Of a DNA stretch of 64,000 nt, positions 49,030 through 64,000 are shown in pieces. The first letter of the stretch is position 1. Every line of letters begins with the position of its first letter. The stretch is from Nitrospirota bacterium (GTDB taxonomy: Bacteria > Nitrospirota > Nitrospiria > 2-01-FULL-66-17). Where the stretch lies: contig JACQCD010000121.1 of the NCBI GenBank assembly GCA_016201825.1, positions 1,753 to 65,752 on the forward strand, written 5' to 3'. Made by a program: the position numbers and the translations under genes. The notes beneath the pieces were generated by a model. The model did not search any database and was not told where the DNA came from. It worked only from the letters and a program-made list of their open reading frames with translations.

Positions 49030-49058
49030 TTGCCCTTGGAGGGCAAACCATATATGAT
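49030..49058 (+). promoter_or_regulatory. candidate promoter TTGCCC-N17-TATGAT for the seven-gene cytochrome operon
   Basis: TTGCCC at 49030-49035 and TATGAT at 49053-49058. The -35 overlaps a 6-bp hairpin (TTGCCC/GGGCAA), so this is ambiguous with a terminator for the esterase gene. Confidence 0.35.
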
Positions 49059-49190
49059 GGGCCGGTTTGACGGCTGGCCGATCGCGCCATGCTACCGCGA
49101 CGGGATATCAACGGGGCGCGCGAGCGCTCCCGGTGTGTCAGGTCGCGTGTCACCCCGCCGGTTCTCGGCGGGTTTCGCGACGGTGGAGGG

Positions 49191-51575
49191 ATGTCAATCA
49201 TGGCTCGCCATCGGTTGGACGTGGTCATCGCGGGGGCGGGCCCGGCCGGTTTGAGTGCGGCCGGCCACGCCCAGGCCAACGGCGTGTCTTACGTCCTGCT
49301 TGAGAAGACCGACCACCTCGCCGATACCGTCTTTAGCTACCAGAAACGCAAACACGTCATGTCCGAGCCGGGGCTCATCCCGCTTCGGGGGCCGCTGGCG
49401 TTTGAGGCGGGCACGCGTGAGTCCATCCTCGACGGGTGGAACCGGTTCGCGACGCAGGGCCGGTTGAACGTGTGTTACAGCCAACCCGTCACCGGGATCG
49501 TGTCACGCGACGGCGGATTCCTGGTCAACACCCCGACCGATGAGTACGAAGCGGGGAAGGTGATCCTGTCGATCGGCACGCAAGGCAACCCCCGCAAGCT
49601 CGGCGCGCCGGGCGAAGACCTCCCGCACATCACGAGCCGTCTCATCGACCCGGATGCGTTTGCCGATCAGGACATCGTGGTGGTCGGCGGCGGCGACGCG
49701 GCGATCGAGGTCGCCGTGGCGCTGTGCGAAAAGAATCGGGTCAGCATGGTGGTACGAACGCCCGAGTTCATCCGTGTGAAGGAGGCGCTCGAGCGCGAGG
49801 TGCTGGGCCGGGAGCGGGCCGGCCAGATGAAGATTTTTTACAACTCGGCGGTGAAGCGGGTCGAGCCCGGCTCGATCGAGCTCAAGACGCCGGACCGCGA
49901 CGTGGTCGTGCCGGCCGCCCACGTGATTCTCAAGATCGGCACGCAGCCGCCGCGGGCGTTCTTGGAAACCCTCGGGGTGCGGTTCCCCTCGGCGGATCGC
50001 GAAGCCCAGCCCGTCCTCAATCAGTATTACGAGTCGAGCGTGCCGGGGTTGTTCCTCATCGGCGCCGTCAGCGGGCGGCCGCTGATCAAGCTCGGCATCA
50101 ACCAGGGGTACGAGGTCATCGAGCACCTGTTGGGGCGGCCCGTCGAGCCGGCCGACGAGGACCTGCTCAAGGCCAAGCTGCCGTTCCTCCGCGGAACGGC
50201 GCGGGAGCGCATTCGCCGCGCGGCGAACGGGGTGCCGATCCTGGCCGCCGCGGACGACGAGTCGCTGCGCGAGGTGTTCCTCGCCGCCACCGTGCGGTCC
50301 TGCCGCCACGGCGAGGTGATTTTTCGGCAGAACGACTACACCGACAGCTTCCTCGCGATCCTCGACGGCCCGGTCGACATCTCCGTGGCCGCGGACGACG
50401 GCGCCGCGCGCCGGGTGGCCACGTTGTCGGCGGGGAGCTTCTTCGGCGAAATGAGCCTGATTTCCGGGCGCCGGCGGTCGGCCACGGCCACGTCGGTGGG
50501 CGAGACCCGGCTTCTCGAGATCCCGCGCAAGCCGATGCTCAAATTGGTCTACACCTCGCCCGCGGTGAGCGAGATTCTCAACCGCACGTACCTGATTCGC
50601 GCGTTTCAGAGCTATCTATTTCCTCAGGCGACCGACAACGAGTTGCGCGATCTGGCCATGACGGCGGTGGCACAGAAGCTCGAGAAGAACACGGCGGTGT
50701 TCCGCGAGGGGGAGCCGGGCGACGCGTTCTACCTGATTCGCAGCGGGATGGTGAAGATCGCCAAGGCGTCGGGCGTGAAGGAGCTGGTGTTGGCGTACCT
50801 TCCGGCGGGGCAGTACTTCGGTGAGATGGCGCTGCTCTCGGGCGAGCCGCGCAGCGCGACGGTCACGGCGATTTTCCCCACCGAGCTGATCCGCCTCGGC
50901 AAAGACGACTTCTTGCGGTTCTTGGAGGCCCGCCGCGAGTTGAAGGAGCGGATCGCGCGCGAGGCCGAGCGGCGCCGGTTGGCGACGCTCGAGGCCCAGG
51001 CGGGGACCGAGGGAGGCGGCGTGCTGGGCGAGTTGATCCGCGAGGAGGTCGTGATCGGGACCGACGTCCTTTTGATCGACGAGCATCGGTGTGTACGCTG
51101 CAACAATTGCGTCAAAGCCTGCGAGGGCGTCCACGAGGACGGTCAGGCGCGCCTCTCCCTGACCGGGACCACGTTCTACAACCTCCTGGTCCCGAACTCG
51201 TGCCGCCACTGCGAGAACCCGCTGTGCATGACCGACTGTCCCCCCGACGCGATCGCGCGCGACCCGCGCGGGGAGGTGTACATCAAGAACAACTGCATCG
51301 GGTGCGGCAACTGTGCGAAGAATTGTCCCTACGGCAACATCTTCATGGTCCATCCCAAGGCTCAGCACGGAATCCTGGGCTGGCTCAAGGCCCTCTGGCC
51401 GGGGGCCGGTGAAGAATCGGGACGATCGGTCGCCGTGAAGTGCGACCTGTGCCGGGACATCGCGGGCGGGCCGGCGTGTGTGCGGAGCTGCCCCACCGGC
51501 GCCGCGATCCGGCTCAAGCCCGAGGAATCCCGGCGGCAGATCGAGCGCCTTGTCGCGCGCGGGAGCGGCGCCTGA
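49191..51575 (+). CDS. fusion protein: TrxR-type FAD/NAD(P)H oxidoreductase (no CxxC) + two cyclic-nucleotide-binding domains + 4x[4Fe-4S] ferredoxin module
   Basis: RBS GGAGGG. VVIAGAGPAGLSAA and VVVGGGDAAIEVA. Two cNMP motifs FFGEMSLISGRRRSATA and YFGEMALLSGEPRSATV. Cys clusters CVRCNNCVKAC, CRHCENPLCMTDCP, CIGCGNCAKNCP, CDLCRD…CVRSCP. No signal peptide. Confidence 0.82.
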   Translation: MSIMARHRLDVVIAGAGPAGLSAAGHAQANGVSYVLLEKTDHLADTVFSYQKRKHVMSEPGLIPLRGPLAFEAGTRESILDGWNRFATQGRLNVCYSQPVTGIVSRDGGFLVNTPTDEYEAGKVILSIGTQGNPRKLGAPGEDLPHITSRLIDPDAFADQDIVVVGGGDAAIEVAVALCEKNRVSMVVRTPEFIRVKEALEREVLGRERAGQMKIFYNSAVKRVEPGSIELKTPDRDVVVPAAHVILKIGTQPPRAFLETLGVRFPSADREAQPVLNQYYESSVPGLFLIGAVSGRPLIKLGINQGYEVIEHLLGRPVEPADEDLLKAKLPFLRGTARERIRRAANGVPILAAADDESLREVFLAATVRSCRHGEVIFRQNDYTDSFLAILDGPVDISVAADDGAARRVATLSAGSFFGEMSLISGRRRSATATSVGETRLLEIPRKPMLKLVYTSPAVSEILNRTYLIRAFQSYLFPQATDNELRDLAMTAVAQKLEKNTAVFREGEPGDAFYLIRSGMVKIAKASGVKELVLAYLPAGQYFGEMALLSGEPRSATVTAIFPTELIRLGKDDFLRFLEARRELKERIAREAERRRLATLEAQAGTEGGGVLGELIREEVVIGTDVLLIDEHRCVRCNNCVKACEGVHEDGQARLSLTGTTFYNLLVPNSCRHCENPLCMTDCPPDAIARDPRGEVYIKNNCIGCGNCAKNCPYGNIFMVHPKAQHGILGWLKALWPGAGEESGRSVAVKCDLCRDIAGGPACVRSCPTGAAIRLKPEESRRQIERLVARGSGA

Positions 51576-52408
51576 TGTTGTTGGCCACGCCCCTGAGCGC
51601 GCGGTGGCGCCGCATATCCTGGTGGCTGCTCGTCCTGCTGACGGCGGCGTATGTGTGGGCCGCCTATCCGGACGCCGCGCACGGAGGATCCCGAGTCGGC
51701 ATCGCGTACGGGATCATCGGCTCGGCGCTCATCCTGCTCCTCCTCGCGTTCGGGATTCGCAAGCGGCGGTATCGAAGCCGGCTCGGCCGCGTCGAATCGT
51801 GGCTGCAGTCCCACGTCTACCTCGGCCTCCTCGTGGTGGTCGTCATTCTGCTGCACTCCGGCTTTCGCTTCCACGACCTGATCGCCGTGACGGCGTTCGC
51901 GCTTCTGGGCGTGGTCGTGGCGAGCGGCGTGGTCGGCGCCGTCGCGTACACGCTCGTGCCGGCGTGGCTGACCGAGGCCGAGAGCAACCTCACGCCGCAG
52001 CAGATCTCCGACCGGCTCAACCAGCTCGCCCAGTCGATGGGACGTCTGGCGTCGGGGAAGTCCGCCCCGTTCCGCGCGACCTGCACGCGCCTGCTCCGCG
52101 CGGAGCGGCCGGGCTGGTTTGCGGGGTGGCGCGTCGTCTGGTCCCGCGGCGCCGGTTCGCCGACGGGCGAGCTGGGCGGCGCGTGGCAGGCGCTTCGCGA
52201 CCAGGTCGGGCTCGAGGAGCGGGGAGATTTTGACGCGCTGCTCGTGCTGTCGCGCCAGCGACAGGACCTGCACCGGCGGTTGATCGCCCGGCAGCGGTAC
52301 AAGAACCTGATCGAGGCGTGGTTATACCTCCACGTCCCGCTGTCCGTTGCGATGCTCGTGGCCATTGCGGCGCACGTCACGGCGTTCTTCTACTACGTGG
52401 CGCCGTAG
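51575..52408 (+). CDS. 5-TM membrane protein with two H-x13-H pairs (candidate di-heme b transmembrane electron carrier)
   Basis: The ATG overlaps the previous stop (TGATG). H80/H94 in TM3 (SHVYLGLLVVVVILLHS, nt 51812 and 51854). H253/H267 in TM5 (LHVPLSVAMLVAIAAHV, nt 52331 and 52373). The Arg-rich loops fit positive-inside topology. Confidence 0.7.
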   Translation: MLLATPLSARWRRISWWLLVLLTAAYVWAAYPDAAHGGSRVGIAYGIIGSALILLLLAFGIRKRRYRSRLGRVESWLQSHVYLGLLVVVVILLHSGFRFHDLIAVTAFALLGVVVASGVVGAVAYTLVPAWLTEAESNLTPQQISDRLNQLAQSMGRLASGKSAPFRATCTRLLRAERPGWFAGWRVVWSRGAGSPTGELGGAWQALRDQVGLEERGDFDALLVLSRQRQDLHRRLIARQRYKNLIEAWLYLHVPLSVAMLVAIAAHVTAFFYYVAP

Positions 52409-52416
52409 GGTCCGAC

Positions 52417-54084
52417 GTGGCCTATCGCCTCATCAGACACGCCGACGGCCGGATCGAAACCACCGAGGTGGCGGGACCGGCGCTACGGATCGGCCGAGGC
52501 ACCAATGCCGACCTGCGGTTCGACGACACGGCGGTGGCGCTCGAACACGCCCGCATCGAACAGACCGACGGCGGGTTCCTGCTGACCGATCTGGGCGGCG
52601 TCACGGGCTGCTACGTCAACGGATCACGGGTCACGTCGACGCGCTTGGCCGGAGGGGACCGAATCGAGATCGGTCCGTTTCTGATCGACGTCACGCTGCC
52701 CCGAGGACCGGGCGAGTCGGTGGCGCTCGATGTCCGGCCGGTGGCCGGGGCGAGGGCGGCGCGCGGGGCGATCGATGCCAAGCCGATCGATTATGCCAAG
52801 GCCTACGCGCTCAACCGATGGTTTGCGAACAAGCCCCTCTTGACGCTGGTCGCGACGGCGGGGCTCGGCGCGTTGTTGAGCGGGATTCTGTGGGCGGGGA
52901 AGACCGAACTGTTCCGACCGGGCTCGGTCACGGTCGCCCATGCGCTTTTCACCAATCAGTGCGAGCGCTGCCACACGGCGTGGACCGGCGTCTCCGAGAA
53001 GGCGTGCCGGGGCTGCCACGTCCCGGCGGTCCACCACGACGACCAGGCCGATGCCCCGTCGTGTCTGGCCTGCCACGCCGAGCATCGCGGCCAAGCGGCG
53101 CTGGCCGGCGTGGCGACGCGAGACTGCGTCGCCTGCCACCGCCAGCTCCAGACCAAGGATCATTCGCCGCTTTCGTTCGCGGATCGGACCACCGACTTCG
53201 CGACCGATCATCCCGAGTTCGCGATCACCCGGGTCGTCAATGGGAAGAAGGAGCGCGTGCGATTGGACGTGCCCGGCGCGCGTCGCGCCGACGCCGCTTC
53301 GATCAAGCTCAATCACAAGGTCCATCTCAAGCCGGCTCTCAAAGGGCCCAAGGGCCCCGTCCAACTCGCGTGCCGCGACTGCCATCTTCCGGCCGAGGAC
53401 GGCGCGCGCATGGCGCCGGTGACGTACCAGGAGCGGTGCAAGGGATGCCATGAGCTGGGGTTCGACCCCCGCTTTCCAGACCGCGTCGTCCCGCACGTGC
53501 CCCCGGCCGACGTGCGCGCGTACCTCGTGGCGGAGTATACCGAGAACGCGGGCGCTTTAGTGTCGAAAGGCGGGGGGGCGGATCGGCTCGCGGGGCCGCG
53601 GTTTCCGGGGCCCGCGCGCTCGCCGTCGCTGGAGTGGGTGATGGAGCAGGTCGCCGTCGACGAGCGCCACCTGTACACCTCCGCGTGCCCCGAGTGCCAT
53701 GCGGTGCGCGCGGACGCGCGGCCGGTTCCCGAGATTGAGCCGACGCGGGTCCCCTCGTCGTGGCTGTCGCACGCGCGGTTCGCGCACCGCTCGCACGCCC
53801 AGTTGGAGTGCGGCGCCTGCCACGAAAACGTGGAGAAGAGCGCCGACACGAGCGACGTCCTGCTCCCGGGGATCGAGATCTGCCGCCGGTGCCACCGCGC
53901 GGCCGATCCGACGCCGAGGCTGCAGGCAGATCGGGCGAGCATCGACTGCGTCGCGTGTCATCGCTACCACGACGGGCCGGCCAAACCGGGGCCTGAGGGC
54001 TCGTTCACCATCCGGCGTTTGCTGGACGGAGTGGACCCCGGACGACGGGAACCGCGTCCCATGTCCGAAGGGCCTCAGACATGA
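52417..54084 (+). CDS. FHA domain - TM helix - decaheme c-type cytochrome
   Basis: GTG at 52417. FHA-like LRIGRGTNADLRFDD…HARIE…FLLTDLGG…YVNGSRV…GDRIEIG. TM LLTLVATAGLGALLSGILWAG. Ten CXXCH motifs (CERCH, CRGCH, CLACH, CVACH, CRDCH, CKGCH, CPECH, CGACH, CRRCH, CVACH). Confidence 0.82.
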   Translation: MAYRLIRHADGRIETTEVAGPALRIGRGTNADLRFDDTAVALEHARIEQTDGGFLLTDLGGVTGCYVNGSRVTSTRLAGGDRIEIGPFLIDVTLPRGPGESVALDVRPVAGARAARGAIDAKPIDYAKAYALNRWFANKPLLTLVATAGLGALLSGILWAGKTELFRPGSVTVAHALFTNQCERCHTAWTGVSEKACRGCHVPAVHHDDQADAPSCLACHAEHRGQAALAGVATRDCVACHRQLQTKDHSPLSFADRTTDFATDHPEFAITRVVNGKKERVRLDVPGARRADAASIKLNHKVHLKPALKGPKGPVQLACRDCHLPAEDGARMAPVTYQERCKGCHELGFDPRFPDRVVPHVPPADVRAYLVAEYTENAGALVSKGGGADRLAGPRFPGPARSPSLEWVMEQVAVDERHLYTSACPECHAVRADARPVPEIEPTRVPSSWLSHARFAHRSHAQLECGACHENVEKSADTSDVLLPGIEICRRCHRAADPTPRLQADRASIDCVACHRYHDGPAKPGPEGSFTIRRLLDGVDPGRREPRPMSEGPQT

Positions 54085-55619
54085 AACACTCGCCGCGAAC
54101 GTCAACCGGGAACGTGTCCGCTCTCGCGCGGATGGGGTTGCTTGCGGCGCTGGCGTTCGTCGCCGGCTGCGGCGGCGGGACGAGTGTTGATCAGAGCCTG
54201 ATCTGCGACGGGTCCGGCGCGCCGCTGTCGGCCGCCGAGGTCTCGGGCATCGTGACAAACGCCGCCTCGGCAATCGACGCGCCCGCCATGACGGTCGCCG
54301 TCGTGGACCGGAACGGGAACGTCCTCGCCGTGTATCGGCAGCCGGGCGCTTCGGCCGCGAACGACGACCTGGCCGTGTCGCTCGCGCGCACCGCCGCGTT
54401 CTTCAGCAACAACCAGGCGCCGCTCTCCTCCCGCACCGTGCGATTCATCAGCGGGATCCACTTCCCGCCGGGGATCAGCTTCACCCCTCCCGCCGCGCTG
54501 TACGGGATCGAGAATACCAATCGCGGCTGCGAACTGAACGTCACGTTCAACCCCGGCAAGGCGGTGCCGCCGGCCAAGTCGGTGGCCGGCGGGTCCTGCA
54601 ACAGCACCGACCGCAGCGGGTGCGGACGGGGGATCACGACGGGCAAGGCCGATCTCGCCGACAGCGACCCCGCGGCGGTGAACCCCGGCGGCGTGCCGCT
54701 GTTCCGCGGGTGCACGGTGGTGGGCGGCGTCGGCGTGGCCGGCGCGCCCGGCGCCCACGCCGAGTTCGCCGCGCTCGCGGGGGCCTCGGCGTTCCCGCCG
54801 AGTATCGCGCCACCCGGCATCGTGGTGATCGACGGCGTGCGCCTGCCGTTTGTCGAGCAGACCACCCAGCCGTCGGGCACGACCGCCGGGAGCGCGGCGG
54901 GCGCGTTCGTCGTCGGGCCGGTGGCCGGCGCCGGCGTCCCGGAGGGGTATCTGGCGGGGCCCGTCGCGGGGTCGCGGTTGTCGGCGGCCGAGGTGGATCG
55001 GATCGTCCAACAATCGGTCCAGACCGCCGACCGCACGCGGGCTGCAATCCGCCTCCCGATCGGCCTGCGCACGCGGATGGCGATCGCCGTCGGCGACGTG
55101 GACGGAACGATCCTCGCGCTGTACCGGATGCCAGACAGCACGGTGTTTTCCATCGATGTGGCCGTGGCCAAGGCGCGTAACGTCGTCTACTTCAGCGGGC
55201 CCGATCCCAATGCGGCGGCCGACCTCCCGGGCGTGCCCGCGGGCACGGCCGTCACCAACCGGACGATCAGCTTTGGCAGCCAACCCTTGTTCCCTCCGGG
55301 TATCGACGGCGGCAGCGGTGTCGGCCCGTTCTTCAGTCTGTTTCAGAACGATACGGCTGCGGCGTGCTCGCAGGGGAGCCAGGCGGTGAACGCCAACCAG
55401 AGCGGGATCGTCTTCTTCCCCGGGAGCCTGCCGCTGTACGCGAACGGCATCCTCGCCGGCGGCTTGGGGATCAGCGGCGACGGCGTGGAGCAGGACGACT
55501 ACGTGTCCGCGGGGGGCGCGACGGGCTTCGAATCCCCGGAAGGCATTCGAGCCGACGGCGTCTCGATCCGGGGCGTGCGCCTGCCGTTTCTGAAGTTCCC
55601 TCGGAACCCGGAGGGGTGA
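54081..55619 (+). CDS. lipoprotein with two GlcG/HbpS-like (DUF336, heme-binding/'heme-degrading') domains
   Basis: Lipobox LAFVAGC. Both halves show LSAAEV…(I/A)VAVVD/AIAVGDVDG…LAVYR/LALYRM…A(R/K)(T/A)…FFS/YFS and GG(V/L)PL(F/Y)…GG(V/L)G(V/I)(A/S)G. The ATG overlaps the previous stop. Confidence 0.7.
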   Translation: MKHSPRTSTGNVSALARMGLLAALAFVAGCGGGTSVDQSLICDGSGAPLSAAEVSGIVTNAASAIDAPAMTVAVVDRNGNVLAVYRQPGASAANDDLAVSLARTAAFFSNNQAPLSSRTVRFISGIHFPPGISFTPPAALYGIENTNRGCELNVTFNPGKAVPPAKSVAGGSCNSTDRSGCGRGITTGKADLADSDPAAVNPGGVPLFRGCTVVGGVGVAGAPGAHAEFAALAGASAFPPSIAPPGIVVIDGVRLPFVEQTTQPSGTTAGSAAGAFVVGPVAGAGVPEGYLAGPVAGSRLSAAEVDRIVQQSVQTADRTRAAIRLPIGLRTRMAIAVGDVDGTILALYRMPDSTVFSIDVAVAKARNVVYFSGPDPNAAADLPGVPAGTAVTNRTISFGSQPLFPPGIDGGSGVGPFFSLFQNDTAAACSQGSQAVNANQSGIVFFPGSLPLYANGILAGGLGISGDGVEQDDYVSAGGATGFESPEGIRADGVSIRGVRLPFLKFPRNPEG

Positions 55620-57367
55620 TGCGCGCGACGCGTCGGTGGTCCGGGGTCTTGATGGTTGGCGCATTCGTGGGACTCCTCGGCCTCGTCCCGGGGCCCGACT
55701 CAGCGGGGGCCGCCGAGGGCGACGAGGGAGAAGAGCGGCTGCCGCGACGGCCGCTCGCGCCCGTCACCGAGCCGCGCGAGCCCCTGCTCCCGCAAGAGAT
55801 GCCGGACGGCCGAGGCTTCGTGCCGCTTCCCGACCGGTGGACGATCGCGCCGCCGCCGTACGAGCTGAACGTGAAGGGGCATTGGTGGGATCCGTACAAC
55901 CAGAACCTTCTCAAGGGCGATCGGCCGATGTGGGGTCAGGACACGTTCCTCAACCTGACGCTGGCGTCGGAGACCCTCGCGGAGTACCGCGCCGTGCCGA
56001 CGCCCGGCGGCGTGAGCGCCGAGCGCGCGGGGAGCGCGGCGTTGTTTGGCGCGCGCGAGCAGGGGGCGTTCAGTCAGAACCTGATCGTGTCGGCCGACCT
56101 GTTCAAGGGCGACACGGCGTTTCGGCCGTTCGACTGGCGGGTCAAGGGCACCGTGATCGCCAACCTGAATTTCTTCGACGTCCGGGAACGGGGGATCGTC
56201 AACGTCGACGTGCGCGAGGGCGTGAACCGCCGGGATGGATTCTTTGCGCTGCAAGAGTTCTTTGTCGAGGCCAAGTACAAGGACCGCAGCCCCAACTACG
56301 ATTTCGTGTCGGTCCGGGCCGGCCTCCAGCCGTTTTCGAGCGACTTCCGGGGTTTCGTGTTCACGGACACGAACCTGGGCGTGCGCCTCTTCGGCAACGC
56401 CGAGTCCAACCGCGACCAGTATAACCTCGCGTTCTTCGACCAGCGAGAGAAAGAGACTAATAGCGGCTTGAACCGCTTCGAGCGTCGCGGCCAAGAGGTG
56501 TTCGTGGGCAACGTCTACCGCCAGGACTTCCTGGTGCCGGGCTATACCGCGCAGGTGAGCGCGCACTACCTGCTCGACGAGGAGAGCCTGCACTTCGACG
56601 AGAACGGCTTTCTGGCCCGGCCGGACGCCGTCGGTGTGTTCAAACCCCACGAGATCCGGGCCGCGTACTACGGGTGGGCGGGATCAGGGCACGCGGGGCG
56701 CGTCAACGTCGAGCACGCCGCGTACTACGTCGTGGGCGAGGACCGGCGCAACCCGATCGCCGGGCGCGAGGTCGATATCCGAGCCGGGATGGCGGCGCTG
56801 GAAGTGTCGTACGATCACGACTGGTTCCGGCCCAAGGTCTCATACTTCTACGCCTCCGGCGACGGCAACCCGACCGACGATACCGCTCGGGGGTTCGACG
56901 CGATCTTCGACAACCCGGCGTTCGCGGGCGGACCGTTCAGCTTTTGGAACCGACTTGGCCTCCGCCTGGCGGGCACCGGCGTGGCGCTGGTCAACCGCGG
57001 GAGCGTGCTGCCCGACCTTCGCAGCAGCAAGGAGGAAGGGCAGCCCAACTTCGTCAACCCCGGCATTCATCTCGTCAGCGCGGGTGTCGATGTGGATGTC
57101 ACGCCGAAACTCAAAGGCGTCCTCAACGCCAACTACCTGCGGTTCGACCAGACCGAGGCGCTCGAGTTCCTGCTCTTTCAGGCACCGATCCACAAGGACA
57201 TCGGGTGGGACCTCGGCGCCGGCTTGCGGTATCGGCCGTTGTTGAGCAATAACATCGTGATCCTCGCCGGCGTCGCGGCGTTCATTCCCGGCGAAGGATT
57301 CAAGGACATCTACGAATCGGGCCGCGTGTTGCAGATGGCGTTCACCACGGCGACGCTGGTGTTCTAG
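55619..57367 (+). CDS. outer-membrane beta-barrel (porin-like) protein
   Basis: Signal peptide GVLMVGAFVGLLGLVPGPDSAGA. Alternating beta-strand pattern with many aromatic girdle residues. The C-terminus …TTATLVF ends in Phe. The ATG overlaps the previous stop (TGATG). Confidence 0.72.
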   Translation: MRATRRWSGVLMVGAFVGLLGLVPGPDSAGAAEGDEGEERLPRRPLAPVTEPREPLLPQEMPDGRGFVPLPDRWTIAPPPYELNVKGHWWDPYNQNLLKGDRPMWGQDTFLNLTLASETLAEYRAVPTPGGVSAERAGSAALFGAREQGAFSQNLIVSADLFKGDTAFRPFDWRVKGTVIANLNFFDVRERGIVNVDVREGVNRRDGFFALQEFFVEAKYKDRSPNYDFVSVRAGLQPFSSDFRGFVFTDTNLGVRLFGNAESNRDQYNLAFFDQREKETNSGLNRFERRGQEVFVGNVYRQDFLVPGYTAQVSAHYLLDEESLHFDENGFLARPDAVGVFKPHEIRAAYYGWAGSGHAGRVNVEHAAYYVVGEDRRNPIAGREVDIRAGMAALEVSYDHDWFRPKVSYFYASGDGNPTDDTARGFDAIFDNPAFAGGPFSFWNRLGLRLAGTGVALVNRGSVLPDLRSSKEEGQPNFVNPGIHLVSAGVDVDVTPKLKGVLNANYLRFDQTEALEFLLFQAPIHKDIGWDLGAGLRYRPLLSNNIVILAGVAAFIPGEGFKDIYESGRVLQMAFTTATLVF

Positions 57368-57388
57368 CGCGCAGCCTCGGAGGATCGG

Positions 57389-60300
57389 ATGCGTGACGGT
57401 GACATGAAGACGCGATCGTGGCGGCCGACCTTGACGATCGTCCTGGTCCTCGCCCTGACCGCGGTGGGAGCGTCCCGTTTGTTCTCCGGGGAGCCCTCGA
57501 AAGACCTTCCCGACCTTCACCGGCAACCGGAGACGCTGGCCGACGAGAAGAGCGAGGGGTGTCGGGGATGCCACGAGGGGATCGAGCCGATGCACGCGTC
57601 CCCCGCCGTGAAGCTCGCCTGCGTCGACTGCCACGGCGGAAACGGCGACGCCAAGATCGCGACCGGCGTGGAGCGCGGCTCCGACGAGTACGAGGGCGTC
57701 AAGCGGCAGGCGCACGTTGCGCCCCGGTTCCCCGCGCGGTGGGCGGGGCCTGACGGGCGCTACCGCGCGGCCAACCCCGAGGGCAGCTACACGCTGCTGT
57801 TGGACGAGTCGCCCGAATTCGTGCGCTTCGTCAACCCGGGGGATCTTCGTGTGGCCGTGGAGACGTGTGGGCGCTGTCACGACGACGAGGTCGCGGCCGT
57901 CCGGCGGAGCACGATGACGACGTCGGCGATCTTCTGGGGCGCCGCGGGATACGCGAACGGGATCGTGTCGCCCAAGCGCTCGATCTTCGGCGAGGGCTAC
58001 GGTCGCGACGGCACGCCGCAACTGATCCGTCCCGCCGCGCCGCCCACCGCGGAGGAGAAGCGCAAGGGCGCGTTGCCGTTCCTGGTGCCGCTGCCTCGCT
58101 GGGAGATCATCCAGCCCGGCGATAACTTCCGGGCCTTCGAGGACGGCGGTCTGCTGCAACCGTCGGCCTTCCCCGAGATCGGCAATCCCAACCCACTCGA
58201 CGAACCCGGCAAGCCCGACATCCGCTTGAGCAGTCGCGGCCTCGGCACAGGCCTGCGGGTGAGCATCCCGGTCCTCAACATCCACAAGACGCGGCTGAAC
58301 GACCCGCACCTCTCGTTCCTCGGGACCAACGACCACCCGGGGGACTACCGCTCCAGCGGCTGTACCGCGTGCCACGTCGTCTACGCCAACGACCGCGACC
58401 CTGCGCACTCGGGGCCCTATGCCGAGTTCGGCCACCTGGGCCGCAGCGCGACCGACGACCCCACGATCTCCAAGAACGAATCGGGCCACCCCATCCGCCA
58501 CCGACTCACCCGCGCCGTGCCGTCCAGCCAGTGCATGACCTGCCACATGCACCAGCCGAACTCGTTTATCAATACGTATTACGGGTATAACCTGTGGGAC
58601 TACGAGACCGACGGCGGGTTCCTGTGGCCCGCGAAGCAGCAGTACCCCACCGAAGCCGATCGGCGCCTGATCCTCGACTCCAACCCCGACGGCGCGTCGG
58701 TGCGCGGGCTCTGGTCGGACCCCGCCTTCCTCGCGCGGGTGAGCGAGCTCAATCCCAAGCTGCAGCAGACCCAGTTCGCGGACTACCACGGACACGGCTG
58801 GATCTTCCGCGCCGTGTACAAGCGAGACCGCAAGGGCAATTTGTTGGACGCGGAGGACAAGCCGGTCGCGTTCGAGGACCCCAAGCGCTTCGAGAAGGCG
58901 GTTCACCTCGCGGACATTCATATGGAGAAGGGCATGCACTGCGTGGACTGCCACTTCACGGTGGACAGCCACGGCAACGGTACGCTCTACGGCGAGTACG
59001 GTCACGCCATCGAGATCGCCTGTGAGGATTGTCATGGCACGACCAGGGTGCGGGCCACGCTCCGGACGTCGGGCCCAGCGTCGCCCGCGGGCGGCACCGA
59101 TCTGCTCATCAAGACCACGCCGTTCGGCCGCCCGCAGTTCGCGTGGCGCGAGGGCAAGCTGTTCCAGCGCTCGATGCTGAAGCGGGATCTGGAGTGGGAG
59201 GTTGTCCAGGTGCTCGACTCGATCACGCCGGGCAACGCCCACTACAGCGAGAAGTCCCGCCTGGCGAAGACGATCCAGCGGGACGGAAAAACGTGGGGCC
59301 GCGGCGACGTCGACGACGCGTCGCTCGCCCACTCCAACCAGAAGATGACGTGCTACGCGTGTCATTCGTCGTGGATGACGTCATGTTTTGGCTGCCACCT
59401 GCCGCAGCAGGCGAACCAAAAATCCGACAAGCACCACTTCGAGAGCGGCACGACCCGGCAGTACAGCTCGTACGACATGCAGGTGGTGCGGGACGACGTC
59501 TTCATGCTCGGGATCAACGGGACGGTGGAAGGGCACAAGGTCGCGCCCGTCCGGTCGTCCAGCGCCGTGATGCTCAGCTCGACCAACCTGAACCGGCAGC
59601 GGTTCTACATCCAGCAGCCCACGATCTCCGCTCCGGGATTCAACGGCCAGGCGTTCAACCCCCACGTGCCGCACACCGTGCGCGCGCGCGAAACCAAAGG
59701 GTGCGCCGACTGCCACGTCTCCGCGCAGAACGACAACAATGCGTGGATGGCGCAACTCCTCCTGCTGGGGACCAAGTTCGTCAACTTCATGGGCCGCTTC
59801 GCGTGGGTCGCGGAAGGGGAGGCGGGCCTCGAAGCCGTCGGGGTCACCGAGTGGGAGGAGCCGCAGGCCGTGCTCGGGAGTTTTCTGCACCGCCTGGCCT
59901 ACCCTGACGCGTGGGCCGACCACCAAAAGCGCCGCCTCGAATTATCCGAAGCCCACCACCACGAGGGGGGCGGGGAGGCTCGGAGCCTGGTCAAGCGCGG
60001 GGAGTACCTCTATGCTGCGCTCGGACCCAAGGGCTTCGAGGTCTTCGACGTCGCGAACGTGGACAACAAGGACGCCTCCGAACGGATCGTGACGGCTCCG
60101 GTGTCGCCGCTCGGCCAGCGCACGTACGTCCGCACCTCGTATGCGACGGCCGTGGCGCTGCCGACGAACATGCCGATCGCGCCCTACCGAAAAGGGCTCC
60201 CGGAGAACGAGGAACAGGCGTGGCACCCGCTCTACCACTACGCCTACGTGACCGATCGCGACGAGGGGCTGATCGTCGTCAACGTGGACACGTTGGCCGA

Positions 60301-61156
60301 CCGGGACCCCACGAACAACTTCCTCGAGCGCGCCGCCACGTTCAACCCCGACGGTGAACTGAACGGCGCCCGCAACCTGGCGATCGCGGGGCGGTACGTG
60401 TACGTGGCCTGCGAGCGGGGCTTGGCCGTGGTGGACATCGATGATCCGCTGCACCCGCGCATCGCCGCGCGGCTGCACGACGTCGCTCGGCCCACGTCGG
60501 TGGCGATCCAGTTCCGGTACGCGTTCATGACCGACGCCGAGGGACTCACGGTGGCGGACGTCACCGACCCCCGCGCGCCGCGGGTGGTCGCGCGCCTGCC
60601 GATCGCCGAGGCCAAGAGCGTCTACGTGTCGCGCACCTACGCCTACGTGGCGGCCGGCCGGACGGGCCTGGTGATCGTCGACGTCGAGCGGCCCGATCGG
60701 CCGCGGATCGACCAGGTCTACACGGCCGACGGGCGGATCGCCGACGCGCGCGACGTGAAGGTCGCCTCGACGAACGCGAGCCTGTTCGCGTACGTCGCCG
60801 ACGGTGCGGGTGGACTCAAGGTCATCCAGCTCACGTCGCCCGAGACCATGCCGGGGTATCTCGGGTTCAGCCCGCGGCCGGAGCCGCGGTTGATCGCCAC
60901 GCGCCGCACGCACGGCCCGGCGCTCGCCGTGGCCGAAGGGCTGGACCGCGACCGCGCCGTGGACGAGAGCGGCCATCAAATCGCCGTGTTCAACCGGATC
61001 GGGGCGCGGCCGTTCCGGTCGGACGAGATGCAGCGCTTGTATCTGAAGGATGGCCGTCTGTACCAGGTCGAGAATACGCCGCCCGCGGCGCCCCAGGAAC
61101 CGCCGAAGGCGGACCGCAAGGGGCGGGCGGGATTGCCAACAAGGGGCGAACGATGA
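57389..61156 (+). CDS. 1255-aa secreted decaheme c-type cytochrome fused to a C-terminal LVIVD-repeat beta-propeller
   Basis: RBS GGAGGA. Signal TLTIVLVLALTAVGA. Ten CXXCH motifs between nt ~57560 and ~59716. Six LVIVD-like repeats at nt ~60000-60845 (GFEVFDVA, GLIVVNVD, GLAVVDID, GLTVADVT, GLVIVDVE, GLKVIQLT). Confidence 0.82.
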   Translation: MRDGDMKTRSWRPTLTIVLVLALTAVGASRLFSGEPSKDLPDLHRQPETLADEKSEGCRGCHEGIEPMHASPAVKLACVDCHGGNGDAKIATGVERGSDEYEGVKRQAHVAPRFPARWAGPDGRYRAANPEGSYTLLLDESPEFVRFVNPGDLRVAVETCGRCHDDEVAAVRRSTMTTSAIFWGAAGYANGIVSPKRSIFGEGYGRDGTPQLIRPAAPPTAEEKRKGALPFLVPLPRWEIIQPGDNFRAFEDGGLLQPSAFPEIGNPNPLDEPGKPDIRLSSRGLGTGLRVSIPVLNIHKTRLNDPHLSFLGTNDHPGDYRSSGCTACHVVYANDRDPAHSGPYAEFGHLGRSATDDPTISKNESGHPIRHRLTRAVPSSQCMTCHMHQPNSFINTYYGYNLWDYETDGGFLWPAKQQYPTEADRRLILDSNPDGASVRGLWSDPAFLARVSELNPKLQQTQFADYHGHGWIFRAVYKRDRKGNLLDAEDKPVAFEDPKRFEKAVHLADIHMEKGMHCVDCHFTVDSHGNGTLYGEYGHAIEIACEDCHGTTRVRATLRTSGPASPAGGTDLLIKTTPFGRPQFAWREGKLFQRSMLKRDLEWEVVQVLDSITPGNAHYSEKSRLAKTIQRDGKTWGRGDVDDASLAHSNQKMTCYACHSSWMTSCFGCHLPQQANQKSDKHHFESGTTRQYSSYDMQVVRDDVFMLGINGTVEGHKVAPVRSSSAVMLSSTNLNRQRFYIQQPTISAPGFNGQAFNPHVPHTVRARETKGCADCHVSAQNDNNAWMAQLLLLGTKFVNFMGRFAWVAEGEAGLEAVGVTEWEEPQAVLGSFLHRLAYPDAWADHQKRRLELSEAHHHEGGGEARSLVKRGEYLYAALGPKGFEVFDVANVDNKDASERIVTAPVSPLGQRTYVRTSYATAVALPTNMPIAPYRKGLPENEEQAWHPLYHYAYVTDRDEGLIVVNVDTLADRDPTNNFLERAATFNPDGELNGARNLAIAGRYVYVACERGLAVVDIDDPLHPRIAARLHDVARPTSVAIQFRYAFMTDAEGLTVADVTDPRAPRVVARLPIAEAKSVYVSRTYAYVAAGRTGLVIVDVERPDRPRIDQVYTADGRIADARDVKVASTNASLFAYVADGAGGLKVIQLTSPETMPGYLGFSPRPEPRLIATRRTHGPALAVAEGLDRDRAVDESGHQIAVFNRIGARPFRSDEMQRLYLKDGRLYQVENTPPAAPQEPPKADRKGRAGLPTRGER

Positions 61157-62523
61157 TGCACAACAGACGAGTCAGGTGGGGGGTGGCGGCGATGGTCGCA
61201 TGCGCGGCGGCGCTGGCGTCTATGGGTCTCGGTCCCGCTCGGGCCGCGGACAATCCGGCGCCGAGCGCCAACGAGAAGCCGCGCCCCGGCCAATACCTGG
61301 GCGCGCCCTCGTGCGCGTCCAGCCACTGCCACGGAAGCGCGCAGCCGCGAACGGCGTACGACGTGCGGCAGAACGAGTACCTCATCTGGCTCAAGCAGGA
61401 CAAGCACACCAAGACCTACAGCGTCCTCTCGAACGCCCTTTCGAAGCGCATCGCCAAGAACATGAAATTGAAGCGGCCGCCGCAAGAGGAGGCGCGGTGC
61501 CTGGACTGTCACGGCCTTGCCGTGGCCGAGGAGCTTCAGGCTCGCCCCGTGGACCTCGCCGACGGGATCTCGTGCGAGGGCTGCCACGGACCGGCCGGAG
61601 GATGGCTGGCGGGGCACACCGAGGAGGGATGGACGCACCAGCGCTCGGTCGAGGCCGGCATGACCGATTTGCGCGATCTCGTGACGCGGACGGAGGTGTG
61701 CTTGGGGTGTCACCTCGGCAAGACCGGCACCGGGGTGGACCACGAGCTGCTCGCGGCCGGCCATCCTGATCTCGTATTCGAGTTGGTCAACTTCAGCGCA
61801 GCGATGCCGGCGCACTGGACGCCGGTGTCCCGGAAGAAAGCCCGCGCGGACCGCCCCGATCGCAACACCGCGCGCGCATGGGCGGTGGGGCAGGTGGTGC
61901 AGTTCCGCGAATCGATGCACCTGACCGCGCGCCGCGCCCAGTCGGGCCGGTGGCCGGACTTCGCCGAGATGGAGTGCACCTCCTGCCACCACGCGCTCAA
62001 CGGCGGCAAGGAGCGGCAGCTCCGGGGGTATTCGCTGGCGGCCGGGCTTCCGGGTACCAGCCCCGCGCGCGTCGCCGTCTTCCGCCACGTGCTCGACACG
62101 TTCTCGCCGGACGACCGCGGTCCGCTGCTCGTGAGCGTGGACCGACTTGCGGCCTCGATCTCGCGCCTGTTTACGCCGCACGAGACGGTGGCGGTCCAGG
62201 CGAACGTGCTCGGGGACGAGACGCGCGGGGTGTTGGACCGGGTCGGGTCCACGGAGATCGACGACGCCTTGACCCGCGTGATGCTGCTGCGGGTGGCCGG
62301 CGACGGAGTCTTTTTGAACAGAGCCGACTTGAGGTCGGCGAAGCAGGTGGCGCTGGCGATCAACGCGCTGGCCGGCGCGCTGGCCGAACACGATCCCAAG
62401 TGGGCCCGCCCGGAGGTCGCGAAGACGATCGACGCGCTGTACGACGACGTCTCCGGCAAAGGTGACTATGACCCACAACGGTTCGTCAAGCACCTCGCGG
62501 CGTTTCGGCGATCGGTGAAGTGA
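61153..62523 (+). CDS. secreted multiheme cytochrome (c554-like N-terminal half, helical C-terminal half)
   Basis: Signal AAMVACAAALASMGLGPARA. CLDCH, CEGCH, CLGCH, CTSCH plus an atypical SCASSHCH (CX4CH) where family members normally carry the first CXXCH. The ATG overlaps the previous stop. Confidence 0.75.
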   Translation: MMHNRRVRWGVAAMVACAAALASMGLGPARAADNPAPSANEKPRPGQYLGAPSCASSHCHGSAQPRTAYDVRQNEYLIWLKQDKHTKTYSVLSNALSKRIAKNMKLKRPPQEEARCLDCHGLAVAEELQARPVDLADGISCEGCHGPAGGWLAGHTEEGWTHQRSVEAGMTDLRDLVTRTEVCLGCHLGKTGTGVDHELLAAGHPDLVFELVNFSAAMPAHWTPVSRKKARADRPDRNTARAWAVGQVVQFRESMHLTARRAQSGRWPDFAEMECTSCHHALNGGKERQLRGYSLAAGLPGTSPARVAVFRHVLDTFSPDDRGPLLVSVDRLAASISRLFTPHETVAVQANVLGDETRGVLDRVGSTEIDDALTRVMLLRVAGDGVFLNRADLRSAKQVALAINALAGALAEHDPKWARPEVAKTIDALYDDVSGKGDYDPQRFVKHLAAFRRSVK

Positions 62524-62560: not shown

Positions 62561-63328
62561 CTACACCTGAAACGTCGCCCCGTCTTCTAAGATGGTCAGG
62601 TTCGTGACCGGAAGTTTCCCCAACTCCCGCCGGATTGCCGCGCGGTACCGCGGCTTCACGTGGTAGACGTAGACGGGGAGGTTCGGCCGTCCCAGCTTGG
62701 CGAACTCGTCGGCTAGCAGCGCAGGCGTGAGGTGTTTGGTCTGTGCGGCGAGACCTTTCAGCGCGTTGGGGAACGAGGTCTCGATCATGGCGGCCTTCAG
62801 GTCGGGTGTGGCGGCCGCCGCCTTCCAGAGGTGATCCGTCCGGTACGTATCCCCGCTGTAGAGGAGCGAGCCTCGCCGATCACGGATCAAGAAACCCGCG
62901 CACGGGACGGTGTGGTTGACGGCGAACGCGCGGACCCGGAGGTCGTCGAGTTGAATCGCCGTGCCTTCGTCGATCGCCTCGAGCCGAAAGAGCGGATGGG
63001 TCGGCGTGGGGATCTTGGTGAAGTCGGGCCAGAGGCGGTCGTTGAAGACGTGGCGTTTCAGTTCGTCGATCACCTTCTTCAGGCTGACGATCACGATCGA
63101 CTGTGGCACGCCGTTCTCGATCAGATTCTCGGACAGGAGGGGGAGGCTCTTGATGTGATCCATGTGGATGTGCGACACGAGGACGTAGCGGATCTTCCGC
63201 TGCTCCGCGATCGTCAGCGCCGAGCAGACCGTGCCCGCGTCCACGAGGACCGATCGGTTGATCAGAAAGCCGGAGGTGCCGCACTCGCCCAGCTCCGCGC
63301 CGTGGCACCCCAAGACCCTCACCCTCAT
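62561..63328 (-). CDS. class-II 3',5'-cyclic-nucleotide phosphodiesterase (MBL fold, CpdP-like)
   Basis: MRVRVLGCHG…YVLVSHIHMDHIKSLPLLSE (HxHxDH signature region). Start at the ATG at 63328. The upstream part of ORF 62561..63730 is a shadow frame. Confidence 0.75.
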   Translation of the reverse strand: MRVRVLGCHGAELGECGTSGFLINRSVLVDAGTVCSALTIAEQRKIRYVLVSHIHMDHIKSLPLLSENLIENGVPQSIVIVSLKKVIDELKRHVFNDRLWPDFTKIPTPTHPLFRLEAIDEGTAIQLDDLRVRAFAVNHTVPCAGFLIRDRRGSLLYSGDTYRTDHLWKAAAATPDLKAAMIETSFPNALKGLAAQTKHLTPALLADEFAKLGRPNLPVYVYHVKPRYRAAIRRELGKLPVTNLTILEDGATFQV

Positions 63329-64000
63329 GCGCGCTCCTTTTTGAGTCCCGTGACCTCGTAGACCCGCACGGTCTTGGCCCGTCCCTTGACCGCCAGCTCG
63401 CCCAGATCTTTGAACGCCGCGCGGCCGATCTTCTTGGGCGCTTTGCGGCGATCCGGGTGCCGGATCAGCGCGGTCCGGGCGCGGCGTTCGTCGACCGGCA
63501 CTTCGCGGGCCTCGACCAAGTGCTCGATCGCCCGGTACGTGGAGTCGGTGATGAGGATGCCCGCGTTGTGTTGTCTGGTCAGCGACTCCACGCGCGCGCC
63601 GAGATTGACGTTGTCGCCGATCAGCGTGTAGTCCATCTTCTTGCCCTCGGCGCCCATGTTGCCCACGACCATCTCGCCGGTGTTGATCCCGATCCCCGCA
63701 TCCAGCGGCTCGCGCCCCTCGGCGCGCCACTTCGCCTGCAGCTCGGCGAGCCGGTGTCGCATGTGCAACGCGCAGCGGACAGCCAGCTCGGCGTGGTTGG
63801 GTTGGTCGATGGGCGCGCCCCAGAATACCATGATCGCGTCGCCCACGAACTTGTCCAGGGTCCCGTTCCAGTGGAAGATCACATCGGTCATCGCCTGGAG
63901 ATATTCGTTGAGGGCGGCGACGACCTCCTCCGGCTGGTGGGCCTCGGAGAACGCCGTGAAGCCGCGCACGTCGGAGAAGAGCACCGTCAGCTCCTTACGC
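63325..64000 (-). CDS. class III adenylate/guanylate cyclase catalytic domain (5' end beyond the right edge of the window)
   Basis: …TVLFSDVRGFTAFSE…LDKFVGDAIMVFWGAP…GINTGEMVVGNMG…DYTLIGDNVNLGARVES. The stop overlaps the phosphodiesterase start (ATGA). Confidence 0.85.
   Translation of the reverse strand, partial: RKELTVLFSDVRGFTAFSEAHQPEEVVAALNEYLQAMTDVIFHWNGTLDKFVGDAIMVFWGAPIDQPNHAELAVRCALHMRHRLAELQAKWRAEGREPLDAGIGINTGEMVVGNMGAEGKKMDYTLIGDNVNLGARVESLTRQHNAGILITDSTYRAIEHLVEAREVPVDERRARTALIRHPDRRKAPKKIGRAAFKDLGELAVKGRAKTVRVYEVTGLKKERA

Follow-up and report, generated by a model that had tools for sequence, protein, structure and literature searches.

A stretch of 64,000 nucleotides from a Nitrospirota genome (contig JACQCD010000121.1, positions 1,753 to 65,752; hereafter the window) was analysed with regard to one of its genes, here named gene F. 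Its product combines a ten-haem c-type cytochrome domain with a C-terminal β-propeller made of LVIVD repeats. Gene F comes sixth in a run of translationally coupled genes on the + strand, named A to G, which extends from 49.1 to 62.5 kb, and start and stop codons overlap at the A/B, C/D, D/E, and F/G junctions. The coordinates of the genes and of the parts of F are collected in Table 1.

The fusion protein encoded by gene F

The open reading frame (ORF) of F represents a real gene, because an identical protein is on deposit, i.e., 'hypothetical protein HY207_11730 [Nitrospirae bacterium]' (P0001). In the GenBank record, the start is placed at Met6 (57404), which gives a protein of 1250 amino acids. 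The ATG used here is preceded at 4 nucleotides by a GGAGGA motif, located within the 21-nucleotide gap between genes E and F. An ATG-initiated ORF of 841 amino acids was also predicted at 56840-59365 on the - strand, antisense to E and F, together with other long antisense ORFs. Because the G+C content of the window is 64% and the sense strand has full-length homologues, the long antisense ORFs over F are best explained as high-GC artefacts, not as genes.

The ten haem-binding motifs were located by CXXCH scan at residues 58, 78, 160, 325, 382, 518, 545, 655, 666, and 772 of F (nucleotide starts 57560, 57620, 57866, 58361, 58532, 58940, 59021, 59351, 59384, and 59702). A preliminary description of the locus had listed ten CXXCH motifs over about 720 residues, and all ten were recovered with the same sequences, motif 1 to motif 10 spanning 719 residues. 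Twenty of the 21 Cys residues of F are within these motifs. When the composition of F was preserved in 20,000 shuffled sequences, CXXCH appeared 0.012 times on average and twice at most, against the ten of the actual protein. With several conserved CXXCH motifs in an exported protein, F has the features of a multihaem c-type cytochrome, and haem attachment is predicted from the sequence.

The haem motifs were highly conserved in the family. Those other than haem 3 were kept in 136/136 members, except that the count for haems 1 and 2 is 135/136, one truncated sequence being without them. The haem 3 motif (CGRCH, window 57866-57880) was CXXCH in 129/136 members and CX4CH, e.g., CGTSNCH or CGTAGCH, in the seven most divergent ones (P0122, P0123, P0128, P0130, P0131, P0133, and P0134).

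The fold of the haem domain was predicted by AlphaFold2 (AF2), which was run without haems. A β-rich subdomain was modelled between haems 9 and 10, at approximately residues 663-760. When the domain was modelled by itself from an alignment of greater diversity, it reached a predicted local distance difference test score (pLDDT) of 75.6 and a predicted template modelling score (pTM) of 0.81. By Foldseek search of this model against PDB, no match was found at E ≤ 0.001. The sequence of F retrieved nothing at E ≤ 1 from all PDB chains, and the family profile gave only chance-level values (E ~0.1-0.8), mostly for TvNiR (E ~0.3-0.5). The haem domain is provisionally regarded as a new fold, and provisionally because haems are missing from the AF2 models and Foldseek performs poorly on haem-rich folds modelled without them.

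Known multihaem families were searched as had been proposed in the preliminary description, and F could be assigned to none of MtrA/DmsE, HAO/ONR, and OmcA/MtrC. For MtrA/DmsE (TIGR03508), no NCBIfam match of F was found at E ≤ 1. For HAO, NrfA, and the octahaem nitrite or tetrathionate reductases, there was no Foldseek match, F contains no CXXCK motif, and TvNiR appeared only at the E values given above. For the MtrC/OmcA family, PF22113 was absent from F at E ≤ 1, and neither a PDB sequence match nor a Foldseek match at E ≤ 0.001 was obtained. F has no lipobox, and its cluster has no MtrA-type or MtrB-type partner. Folds of the HAO, NrfA, OTR, MtrC, or OmcS type were thus unsupported by Foldseek for the haem domain as modelled without haems. 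The haem domain was also considered as a paralogue of the decaheme protein C, and this was rejected since only the haem motifs align.

In Pfam search, the C-terminal half of F matched LVIVD (PF08309) with an E value of 2e-24 and 85.1 bits, against a gathering cut-off of 20.2. The six LVIVD repeats of the preliminary description, each with its pair of strands, were confirmed. The LVIVD repeat was originally recognized in proteins of the cell surface (PMC2447325). The AF2 model of residues 36-1220, made with a 53-sequence alignment, had a pTM of 0.68, and in the repeat region the pLDDT was 80-95 with four strands per repeat. By Foldseek against PDB, the C-terminal part matched β-propellers with a probability of 1.0. 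The best matches were seven-bladed, i.e., 6-phosphogluconolactonase (6nau) and YbhE (1ri6), with template modelling (TM) scores by target of 0.65-0.67, and also BtuG, AztD, and YncE. BamB and WD40 proteins were among the matches as well. The full-length model retrieved generic propellers only.

A degenerate seventh LVIVD-like repeat, RFAWVAEGEAGLEAVGVTEWEEP, was recognized at residues 803-825 and starts 27 residues past the His of haem 10. It was modelled as two strands at residues 769-783 of the trimmed sequence, which correspond to residues 804-818 of the full-length protein. Since this repeat adds to the six canonical ones, seven blades are implied. The C-terminus of F was confidently modelled as a β-propeller, in line with the fold that had been expected. 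A metal centre lined by His or Cys, CuZ-like or of another kind, was rejected for the propeller, as none of the blades contains an invariant His or Cys.

The two halves had been described as joined by a linker, and this was revised. Residues 777-862 are conserved (majority fraction 0.68-0.82) and were modelled with a pLDDT of ~70-90 as two strands and a helix, with the seventh blade in this segment. Therefore, the cytochrome and the propeller are considered to be packed together, not tethered. In the connector, His834, His845, and His858 are conserved in at least 92% of the family. No stretch of F is more conserved than the tail of 60 residues (1166-1225) that follows the propeller.

Family of gene F and its gene neighbourhood

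By word-indexed search, at least 120 full-length homologues of F were found at 62-74% identity among the matches listed. By exhaustive search of the 50%-identity representatives, approximately 17 full-length clusters were found at 44-57% identity, and the other matches in this library were fragments or unrelated giant LVIVD proteins. With so few full-length clusters, the F family is therefore regarded as compact and under strong constraint. In GTDB species genomes, relatives of F were encoded by at least 591 stretches from eight or more phyla, and the best 80 of them showed 51-71% identity over nearly the full length, i.e., ~1200 residues.

The hosts comprise Nitrospirota, many classes of Acidobacteriota, Burkholderiales, Gamma- and Alphaproteobacteria, Verrucomicrobiota, and Bdellovibrionota. 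In Burkholderiales, F was found in the cultured Duganella guangzhouensis FT80W, D. radicis KCTC 22382, and Duganella sp. SG902, as well as in Rhodoferax and Nitrosomonas bins. The gammaproteobacterial hosts include Steroidobacteraceae, Nevskiaceae, Moraxellaceae, Arenimonas, and Rheinheimera, and the alphaproteobacterial ones include Sphingomonadales, Caulobacteraceae, and Rhizomicrobium. Relatives were also present in Crenotrichaceae and 'Ca. Acidiferrum' bins. In the aerobe Sphingobium herbicidovorans MH, F lies on the 959-kb conjugative replicon pMSHV, with the locus tag RS18425 within the range B6S01_RS18410-18455, and was named only 'multiheme c-type cytochrome' by the Prokaryotic Genome Annotation Pipeline (PGAP). 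The flanks of the pMSHV cluster (L081; 428-8581 and 28041-29720) hold two transporters of the ShlB/FhaC-type two-partner secretion and a hypothetical protein of 2092 amino acids. E-F pairs were also found in three bins assigned to Patescibacteria, Dehalococcoidia, and Dormibacterota (L038, L060, and L064), where an outer membrane is not expected, and these are likely to be binning contamination.

The fusion suggested by the preliminary description is genuine. The cytochrome and the propeller were kept together in all ~130 full-length homologues, and among intact homologues the two halves were never found as separate genes. Representatives that appeared to be cytochrome-only or propeller-only were rejected as split orthologues, because they are truncated or frameshifted metagenome calls. 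A natural variant, P0129, has 1648 amino acids and 28 CXXCH motifs, with an 18-haem c7-type array placed N-terminal to a complete F. This arrangement points to electron entry at the N-terminus of F, with the propeller at the distal end.

The median identity of homologues to the window proteins was 54% for F, 46% for E, 42% for A, 32% for D, 31% for G, 30% for B, and 29% for C, and F is thus the most conserved protein of the cluster. Conservation is even along F, i.e., 0.79 in the inter-haem inserts and 0.84 in the tail, and the inserts are as conserved as the haem motifs. Such high and even conservation, including the inserts, suggests an enzyme or the core of an obligate, tightly packed complex, not a loose wire. 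F is among the most conserved large multihaem proteins that were found, and it is annotated only as 'hypothetical' or 'multiheme c-type cytochrome'. No description of an LVIVD-cytochrome fusion or of the A-G cluster was found in the literature searched. Large multihaem proteins of undefined substrate have been noted in surveys of Acidobacteriota (PMC8100337).

Synteny was counted in the best 80 F loci, with the informative or fully flanked loci as denominators. Gene E ends at most 700 bp upstream of F in 62/66 informative loci. Of the 40 fully flanked loci, 36 have D and 29 have one or more of A, B, and C. G lies directly downstream of F in 25 of 68 loci. Non-cluster ORFs from the 80 loci were clustered, and this gave lineage-specific synteny only, with no other broadly conserved neighbour family. 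E and F form a conserved pair of a multihaem gene beside an outer-membrane barrel gene, as in porin-cytochrome gene pairs. Within the cluster, F is the only exported protein that combines haems with a large non-haem domain.

Table 1. Positions of gene F, its parts, and the surrounding genes in the window
Feature	Position	Strand	Basis
Gene F, decaheme cytochrome-LVIVD propeller fusion, 1255 aa	57389..61156	+	ORF and translation
F: Sec-type signal peptide or anchor, aa 1-30, hydrophobic core TLTIVLVLALTAVGA, without lipobox Cys	57389..57478	+	sequence reading
F: ten-haem domain	57560..59716	+	CXXCH scan, family alignment, AF2
F: cryptic seventh (first) LVIVD-like blade, aa 796-830 (RFAWVAEGEAGLEAVGV...)	59774..59878	+	repeat alignment, AF2, conservation 0.82
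F: helical connector, His-rich EAHHH (aa 855-858), conserved	59879..59974	+	AF2, family alignment
F: six canonical LVIVD repeats, anchors aa 873, 951, 1003, 1044, 1084, 1133	59975..60883	+	Pfam, repeat alignment, AF2, Foldseek
F: C-terminal tail, aa 1166-1225 (...LDRDRAVDESGxQ...FNRIGARPF...), highly conserved	60884..61063	+	regional conservation 0.84
F: low-complexity Pro/Lys/Arg tail, aa 1226-1255, not conserved	61064..61153	+	
Gene A, cytoplasmic TrxR/YpdA-like flavoprotein with two cyclic nucleotide-binding and HycB-like poly-[4Fe-4S] domains	49089..51575	+	domain matches
Gene B, polytopic membrane protein, putative dihaem-b transmembrane electron carrier	51575..52408	+	invariant His, sub-threshold Pfam
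Gene C, cytoplasmic FHA domain, one transmembrane helix, periplasmic ten-CXXCH cytochrome; GTG start	52417..54084	+	domain matches
Gene D, lipoprotein (…VAGC) with two GlcG/HbpS-like (DUF336) domains	54081..55619	+	Pfam PF03928 4.4e-26
Gene E, outer-membrane β-barrel, distant AlgE/'Alginate export' type, signal peptide, C-terminal end ...TLVF	55619..57367	+	homologue Pfam
Gene G, exported c554-like cytochrome, 4 CXXCH, helical C-terminal domain; start overlaps F stop (ATGA)	61153..62523	+	
Metallo-β-lactamase-fold/class-II cAMP phosphodiesterase-like gene, convergent	62561..63730	-	Pfam PDEase_II 7.7e-16
Adenylate/guanylate cyclase catalytic domain gene, runs off window end	63325..64000	-	Pfam Guanylate_cyc 1.7e-23

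The flavoprotein A has no signal peptide, and its true start may be Met35 (49191). The tandem cyclic nucleotide-binding domains of A are PKA-R-like. By sigma-70 scan, a promoter-like site was found 5' of A at 49030-49058, and a terminator scan gave candidates at chance level.

In the membrane protein B, two His pairs on hydrophobic helices, His81/His95 and His254/His268, both with a spacing of 14, are invariant in 35-39 homologues. Two His pairs spaced 13-14 on transmembrane helices are the signature of NOX/ferric-reductase-type dihaem-b domains. The Pfam matches of B were all sub-threshold, i.e., Ni_hydr_CYTB (0.028) and Ferric_reduct (0.045), with a weak likeness also to b561. In PDB, the lipoprotein D matched EfgA (6bws) at 6e-12, and HbpS (4bmw and 4nkp) was matched weakly.

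The barrel E of the window had no Pfam match itself. Its homologues P0322 and P0325, which are 59-62% identical, passed the threshold of PF13372 with 28.2 and 26.9 bits against 25.2. The AlgE family has an 18-strand barrel with a narrow pore, and MtrB has 26 strands. The AlgE-like affinity of E argues for a predicted pore that is narrow. An N-terminal Ig-like domain (Big_13) was seen in many E homologues (P0274, P0291, and others) and is absent from the window E; it may possibly serve in periplasmic docking.

Genes related to cyclic nucleotide monophosphates (cNMP) follow the cluster in the window. The PDEase_II-like gene possibly supplies cNMP control to A, and the association is weak, with homologous neighbours in few loci. 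Loci L001, L035, L057, and L077 have cyclase homologues close to the cluster, and CpdA-like metallophosphoesterases adjoin the cluster in Sphingomonads. Cyclase or CpdA-like genes, taken together, recur near the cluster in L001, L035, L057, L072, L077, and L081. There are hints of a dedicated cyclic-nucleotide control circuit for A.

Proposed pathway and competing readings

It is reasonable, with some hesitation, to consider F as the terminal redox module, close to the outer membrane, of a conserved electron-export pathway encoded by seven genes. In this pathway, A would oxidise cytoplasmic NAD(P)H and pass the electrons from flavin to its iron-sulfur (Fe-S) clusters, gated by the two cyclic-nucleotide-binding domains. 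The electrons would cross the inner membrane via two b-haems, for which the four invariant His of B would be the ligands, and A-B may be read as a split NOX/FRE-like exporter. C, as a membrane-anchored decaheme, would take them into the periplasm, with its cytoplasmic FHA domain adding phospho-dependent control, and would hand them to F, possibly through the c554-like G. In F, they would enter at the N-terminal haems and run along the ten haems to haem 10, which would pack directly on the seven-bladed LVIVD propeller. The propeller, the His-rich connector, and the C-terminal tail may then bind the acceptor, or else the barrel E (and the lipoprotein D). F would lie on the periplasmic side of the outer membrane, at its inner face, and would work with E. 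E itself may be a narrow AlgE-type channel that gives access for a small or soluble acceptor, or an anchor for F, and probably not an MtrB-like sheath of a haem wire.

The task of the pathway would be a regulated reductive one, with Fe(III), Mn, or some other oxidant as the acceptor or with redox dumping as the purpose, rather than growth-supporting respiration. Outward flow would be favoured by the redox span and by the membrane potential. Because the donor would be NAD(P)H and not quinol, and the electrons would flow outward, the pathway is expected to dissipate energy and not to conserve it. The quinone bypass, this dissipation, the cNMP and FHA inputs, and the neighbours of cyclase and phosphodiesterase type are the reasons to propose a regulated reductive device, which would fit the abundance of the genes in obligate aerobes. 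In the preliminary description, F was taken as the most plausible terminal reductase or oxidase of the operon. The terminal redox role was supported, with the conservation of F, its non-haem domain, and P0129 speaking for it, and the oxidase part is disfavoured, as the inner-membrane module of the cluster looks like an outward exporter.

A stronger form of the reading takes A-G as a hitherto unrecognized bacterial counterpart of the eukaryotic NOX/ferric-reductase principle, spanning the whole Gram-negative envelope, in which the cNMP/FHA-gated A-B-C drives the new-fold F at the AlgE-like E. This form is speculative and is considered rather unlikely.

Several observations weigh against the terminal role of F in a seven-gene pathway. 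The complete Verrucomicrobiae chromosome OY969763.1 (L076 9803-13744) carries F without E, D, G, or A-C within 10 kb. This homologue is full-length, with 1313 amino acids, and is placed between mnmE and housekeeping genes. Further, 11/40 fully flanked loci had no A-C nearby. The F-only chromosome and these loci indicate that the link of F to A-B-C is not obligatory. In the other direction, Ferrigenium has a trio resembling A-B-C and no F with it (bioRxiv 10.64898/2026.01.22.701106). As both the solitary F and the trio without F exist, A-B-C and (D)-E-F-(G) are two modules that can be separated and that mostly occur together. Of the proteins themselves, B has no significant family match in Pfam, so its b-haems are predicted from the invariant His. 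The 15 conserved non-motif His of F, with Met, suffice for six-coordination of all ten haems, so from the alignment no open catalytic haem can be pointed to. In the propeller, the family alignment has no conserved His or Cys cluster that would mark a metal centre. Surface display also keeps some probability, since ~15% of homologues are lipobox-like and LVIVD was originally described in surface proteins (PMC2447325).

By a simple pattern scan of the N-termini of 133 full-length homologues, 86 were hydrophobic, 20 were lipobox-like, and 27 were neither, and F of the window has no Cys before haem 1. A periplasmic position at the outer membrane is modestly favoured over the surface, because of the plain signal peptide, the lipobox in only 20/133, and a barrel that is AlgE-like and not MtrB-like. 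The surface or extracellular location and the mineral binding that were first suggested for F were, on the same evidence, not supported.

If F were nevertheless on the surface, it would be a terminal reductase like MtrC/OmcA, exported across the outer membrane, with the propeller as a mineral- or substrate-binding head in contact with insoluble Fe(III)/Mn(IV) oxides or humics. E would then be the porin that lets a periplasmic cytochrome, C or G, make contact with F. The haem density of F, ten in ~720 residues, resembles that of MtrC/OmcA, an outer-membrane barrel gene adjoins F, some homologues have a lipobox-like pattern as in MtrC, and some have precomputed weak matches to PF22113 (MtrC/MtrF domain II/IV). 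The cell-surface proteins in which LVIVD was defined would also agree (PMC2447325). The window F and most homologues lack the lipobox, the cluster has no MtrA/MtrB-type partners or linked type II secretion genes, and E resembles the 18-strand narrow-pore barrel, not the 26-strand MtrB. No PF22113 match at E ≤ 1 and no Foldseek match to MtrC, OmcA, or UndA was obtained for F. Surface-exposed proteins seldom keep more than 50% identity across phyla, and F does so over at least eight of them. On this balance, a surface reductase is unlikely.

About equally improbable is a non-catalytic F, i.e., a periplasmic scaffold for electron storage or relay, whose propeller docks E, D, or G while the reaction takes place elsewhere, e.g., at a haem bound to D, at G, or in the pore of E. 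Propellers are common docking platforms, and the Foldseek matches of F include BamB, WD40 proteins, and BtuG. The haems and the propeller of F, in which neither open coordination nor a metal site is identifiable, are as a scaffold would have them. The Ig-like domain of many E homologues is suited to periplasmic docking, and D belongs to a haem-binding family. Against a scaffold, F is more conserved than all its proposed partners, its inter-haem inserts are conserved like the haem motifs, and it can occur without E, D, and G nearby.

An oxidase for electron uptake was weighed as well, in which an external or periplasmic donor, e.g., Fe(II) or Mn(II), would be oxidised via E and the electrons would move inward. 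A small barrel beside a cytochrome recalls Cyc2-type Fe(II) oxidation, and the window comes from a Nitrospirota metagenome-assembled genome, with relatives in Nitrosomonas, Rhodoferax, Crenotrichaceae, and 'Ca. Acidiferrum' bins. An inward role was proposed for the FHA-nonaheme of Ferrigenium (bioRxiv 10.64898/2026.01.22.701106). This oxidase is very improbable, because the sole cytoplasmic partner is a flavoprotein of the NAD(P)H type, and inward flow to NAD(P)+ through a dihaem-b protein would run against both the redox potential and the membrane potential; moreover, the cluster has no quinone-reducing or oxidase module and is common in aerobic heterotrophs (S. herbicidovorans, Duganella, Caulobacteraceae, and soil Acidobacteriota).

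The export pathway ending at F, if true, would have a meaning beyond this locus. Multihaem conduits are mostly discussed in connection with anaerobes that reduce metals and lithotrophs that oxidise them. In the stronger, speculative form of the reading, aerobic bacteria of soil and freshwater would carry out a non-respiratory reduction outside the cell or in the outer periplasm, e.g., mobilising Fe(III)/Mn oxides or humics. If O2 were reduced by one electron, some of the extracellular superoxide of heterotrophs that is enzymatically unexplained could be accounted for. A signal-gated exporter driven by NAD(P)H would be a new redox route in oxic soils, touching on Fe, Mn, and humic cycling and possibly on reactive oxygen species, and would also bring a new haem-domain fold coupled to a propeller. 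Cultured and genetically promising hosts, i.e., S. herbicidovorans MH, Duganella radicis, and D. guangzhouensis, make F directly testable.

Comparison with known systems

One functional likeness of F is to the outer-surface decaheme cytochromes MtrC/OmcA of Shewanella. Both have ten c-haems over ~700 residues, non-haem β-rich insertions, an adjacent barrel gene, and a presumed place at the end of an electron-export chain. F differs in its fused C-terminal seven-bladed propeller and in a donor module that is predicted to be NAD(P)H-linked, whereas that of MtrC/OmcA is quinol-linked (CymA).

The cytochrome and the last haem of F can be set beside the known enzymes that combine c-haems with a propeller, i.e., cd1 nitrite reductase, hydrazine synthase alpha, quinohaemoprotein alcohol dehydrogenases, and cNosZ. 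In these enzymes, the last haem feeds or drains the propeller site, and they are a precedent for a propeller as the business end. Their propellers hold haem d1, pyrroloquinoline quinone (PQQ), or CuZ by conserved residues, whereas the F propeller has no such ligand set. They have one or two haems against the ten of F, and only the generic propeller fold is common to both.

The input module has its likeness in NOX/FRD and Fre-MsrQ, where a cytoplasmic NAD(P)H flavoprotein sends electrons outward via two b-haems on His pairs 13-14 apart. The A-B layout is similar, although B is only sub-threshold to Ferric_reduct and b561. In contrast, A has extra Fe-S and cNMP domains, and its acceptor would be a multihaem chain, not O2, Fe(III), or MsrP.

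Among curated families, only Geobacter ExtM (NF040943) and ExtN (NF040967) were similar to the haem domain of F, and only in part. ExtM matched in four partial stretches (1.4e-24, 86.3 bits against a cut-off of 800), so F is not a member, and ExtN matched residues 645-778 (4.3e-08, 32 bits against a cut-off of 200). ExtM and ExtN are functionally uncharacterised (PMC5877670). The extHIJKLMNOPQS cluster also encodes a porin-like protein, ExtI. ExtM has 12 haems in ~600 amino acids and no propeller, unlike F, and the ext cluster carries a Rieske/cytochrome-b module where a flavoprotein and a putative dihaem-b protein are found here.

Stand-alone propeller proteins of the NHL-repeat or LVIVD type also recur beside multihaem cytochromes and barrels in clusters for extracellular electron transfer, e.g., the uet cluster of 'Ca. 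Tenderia', and attachment or stabilisation of the complex was proposed for them (bioRxiv 10.1101/2022.05.06.490989). The uet propeller is of the NHL-repeat type and on a separate polypeptide, and no fusion to a cytochrome was described, whereas the fusion in F is invariant. The trio of Ferrigenium straubiae, with an FHA-nonaheme, a protein of five transmembrane helices, and a [4Fe-4S] protein, was reported as novel and of undefined function, and an inward route to quinone was proposed (bioRxiv 10.64898/2026.01.22.701106). It is likened here to C, B, and A by architecture only, and was described without F, E, D, and G.

Taken with these systems, A-G functionally resembles the porin-cytochrome conduits, and F resembles their terminal cytochromes. 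A-G departs from such conduits in four respects: its propeller is fused to the cytochrome, its barrel is AlgE-like, its input module is predicted to be under NAD(P)H/cNMP/FHA control, and its host range is different.

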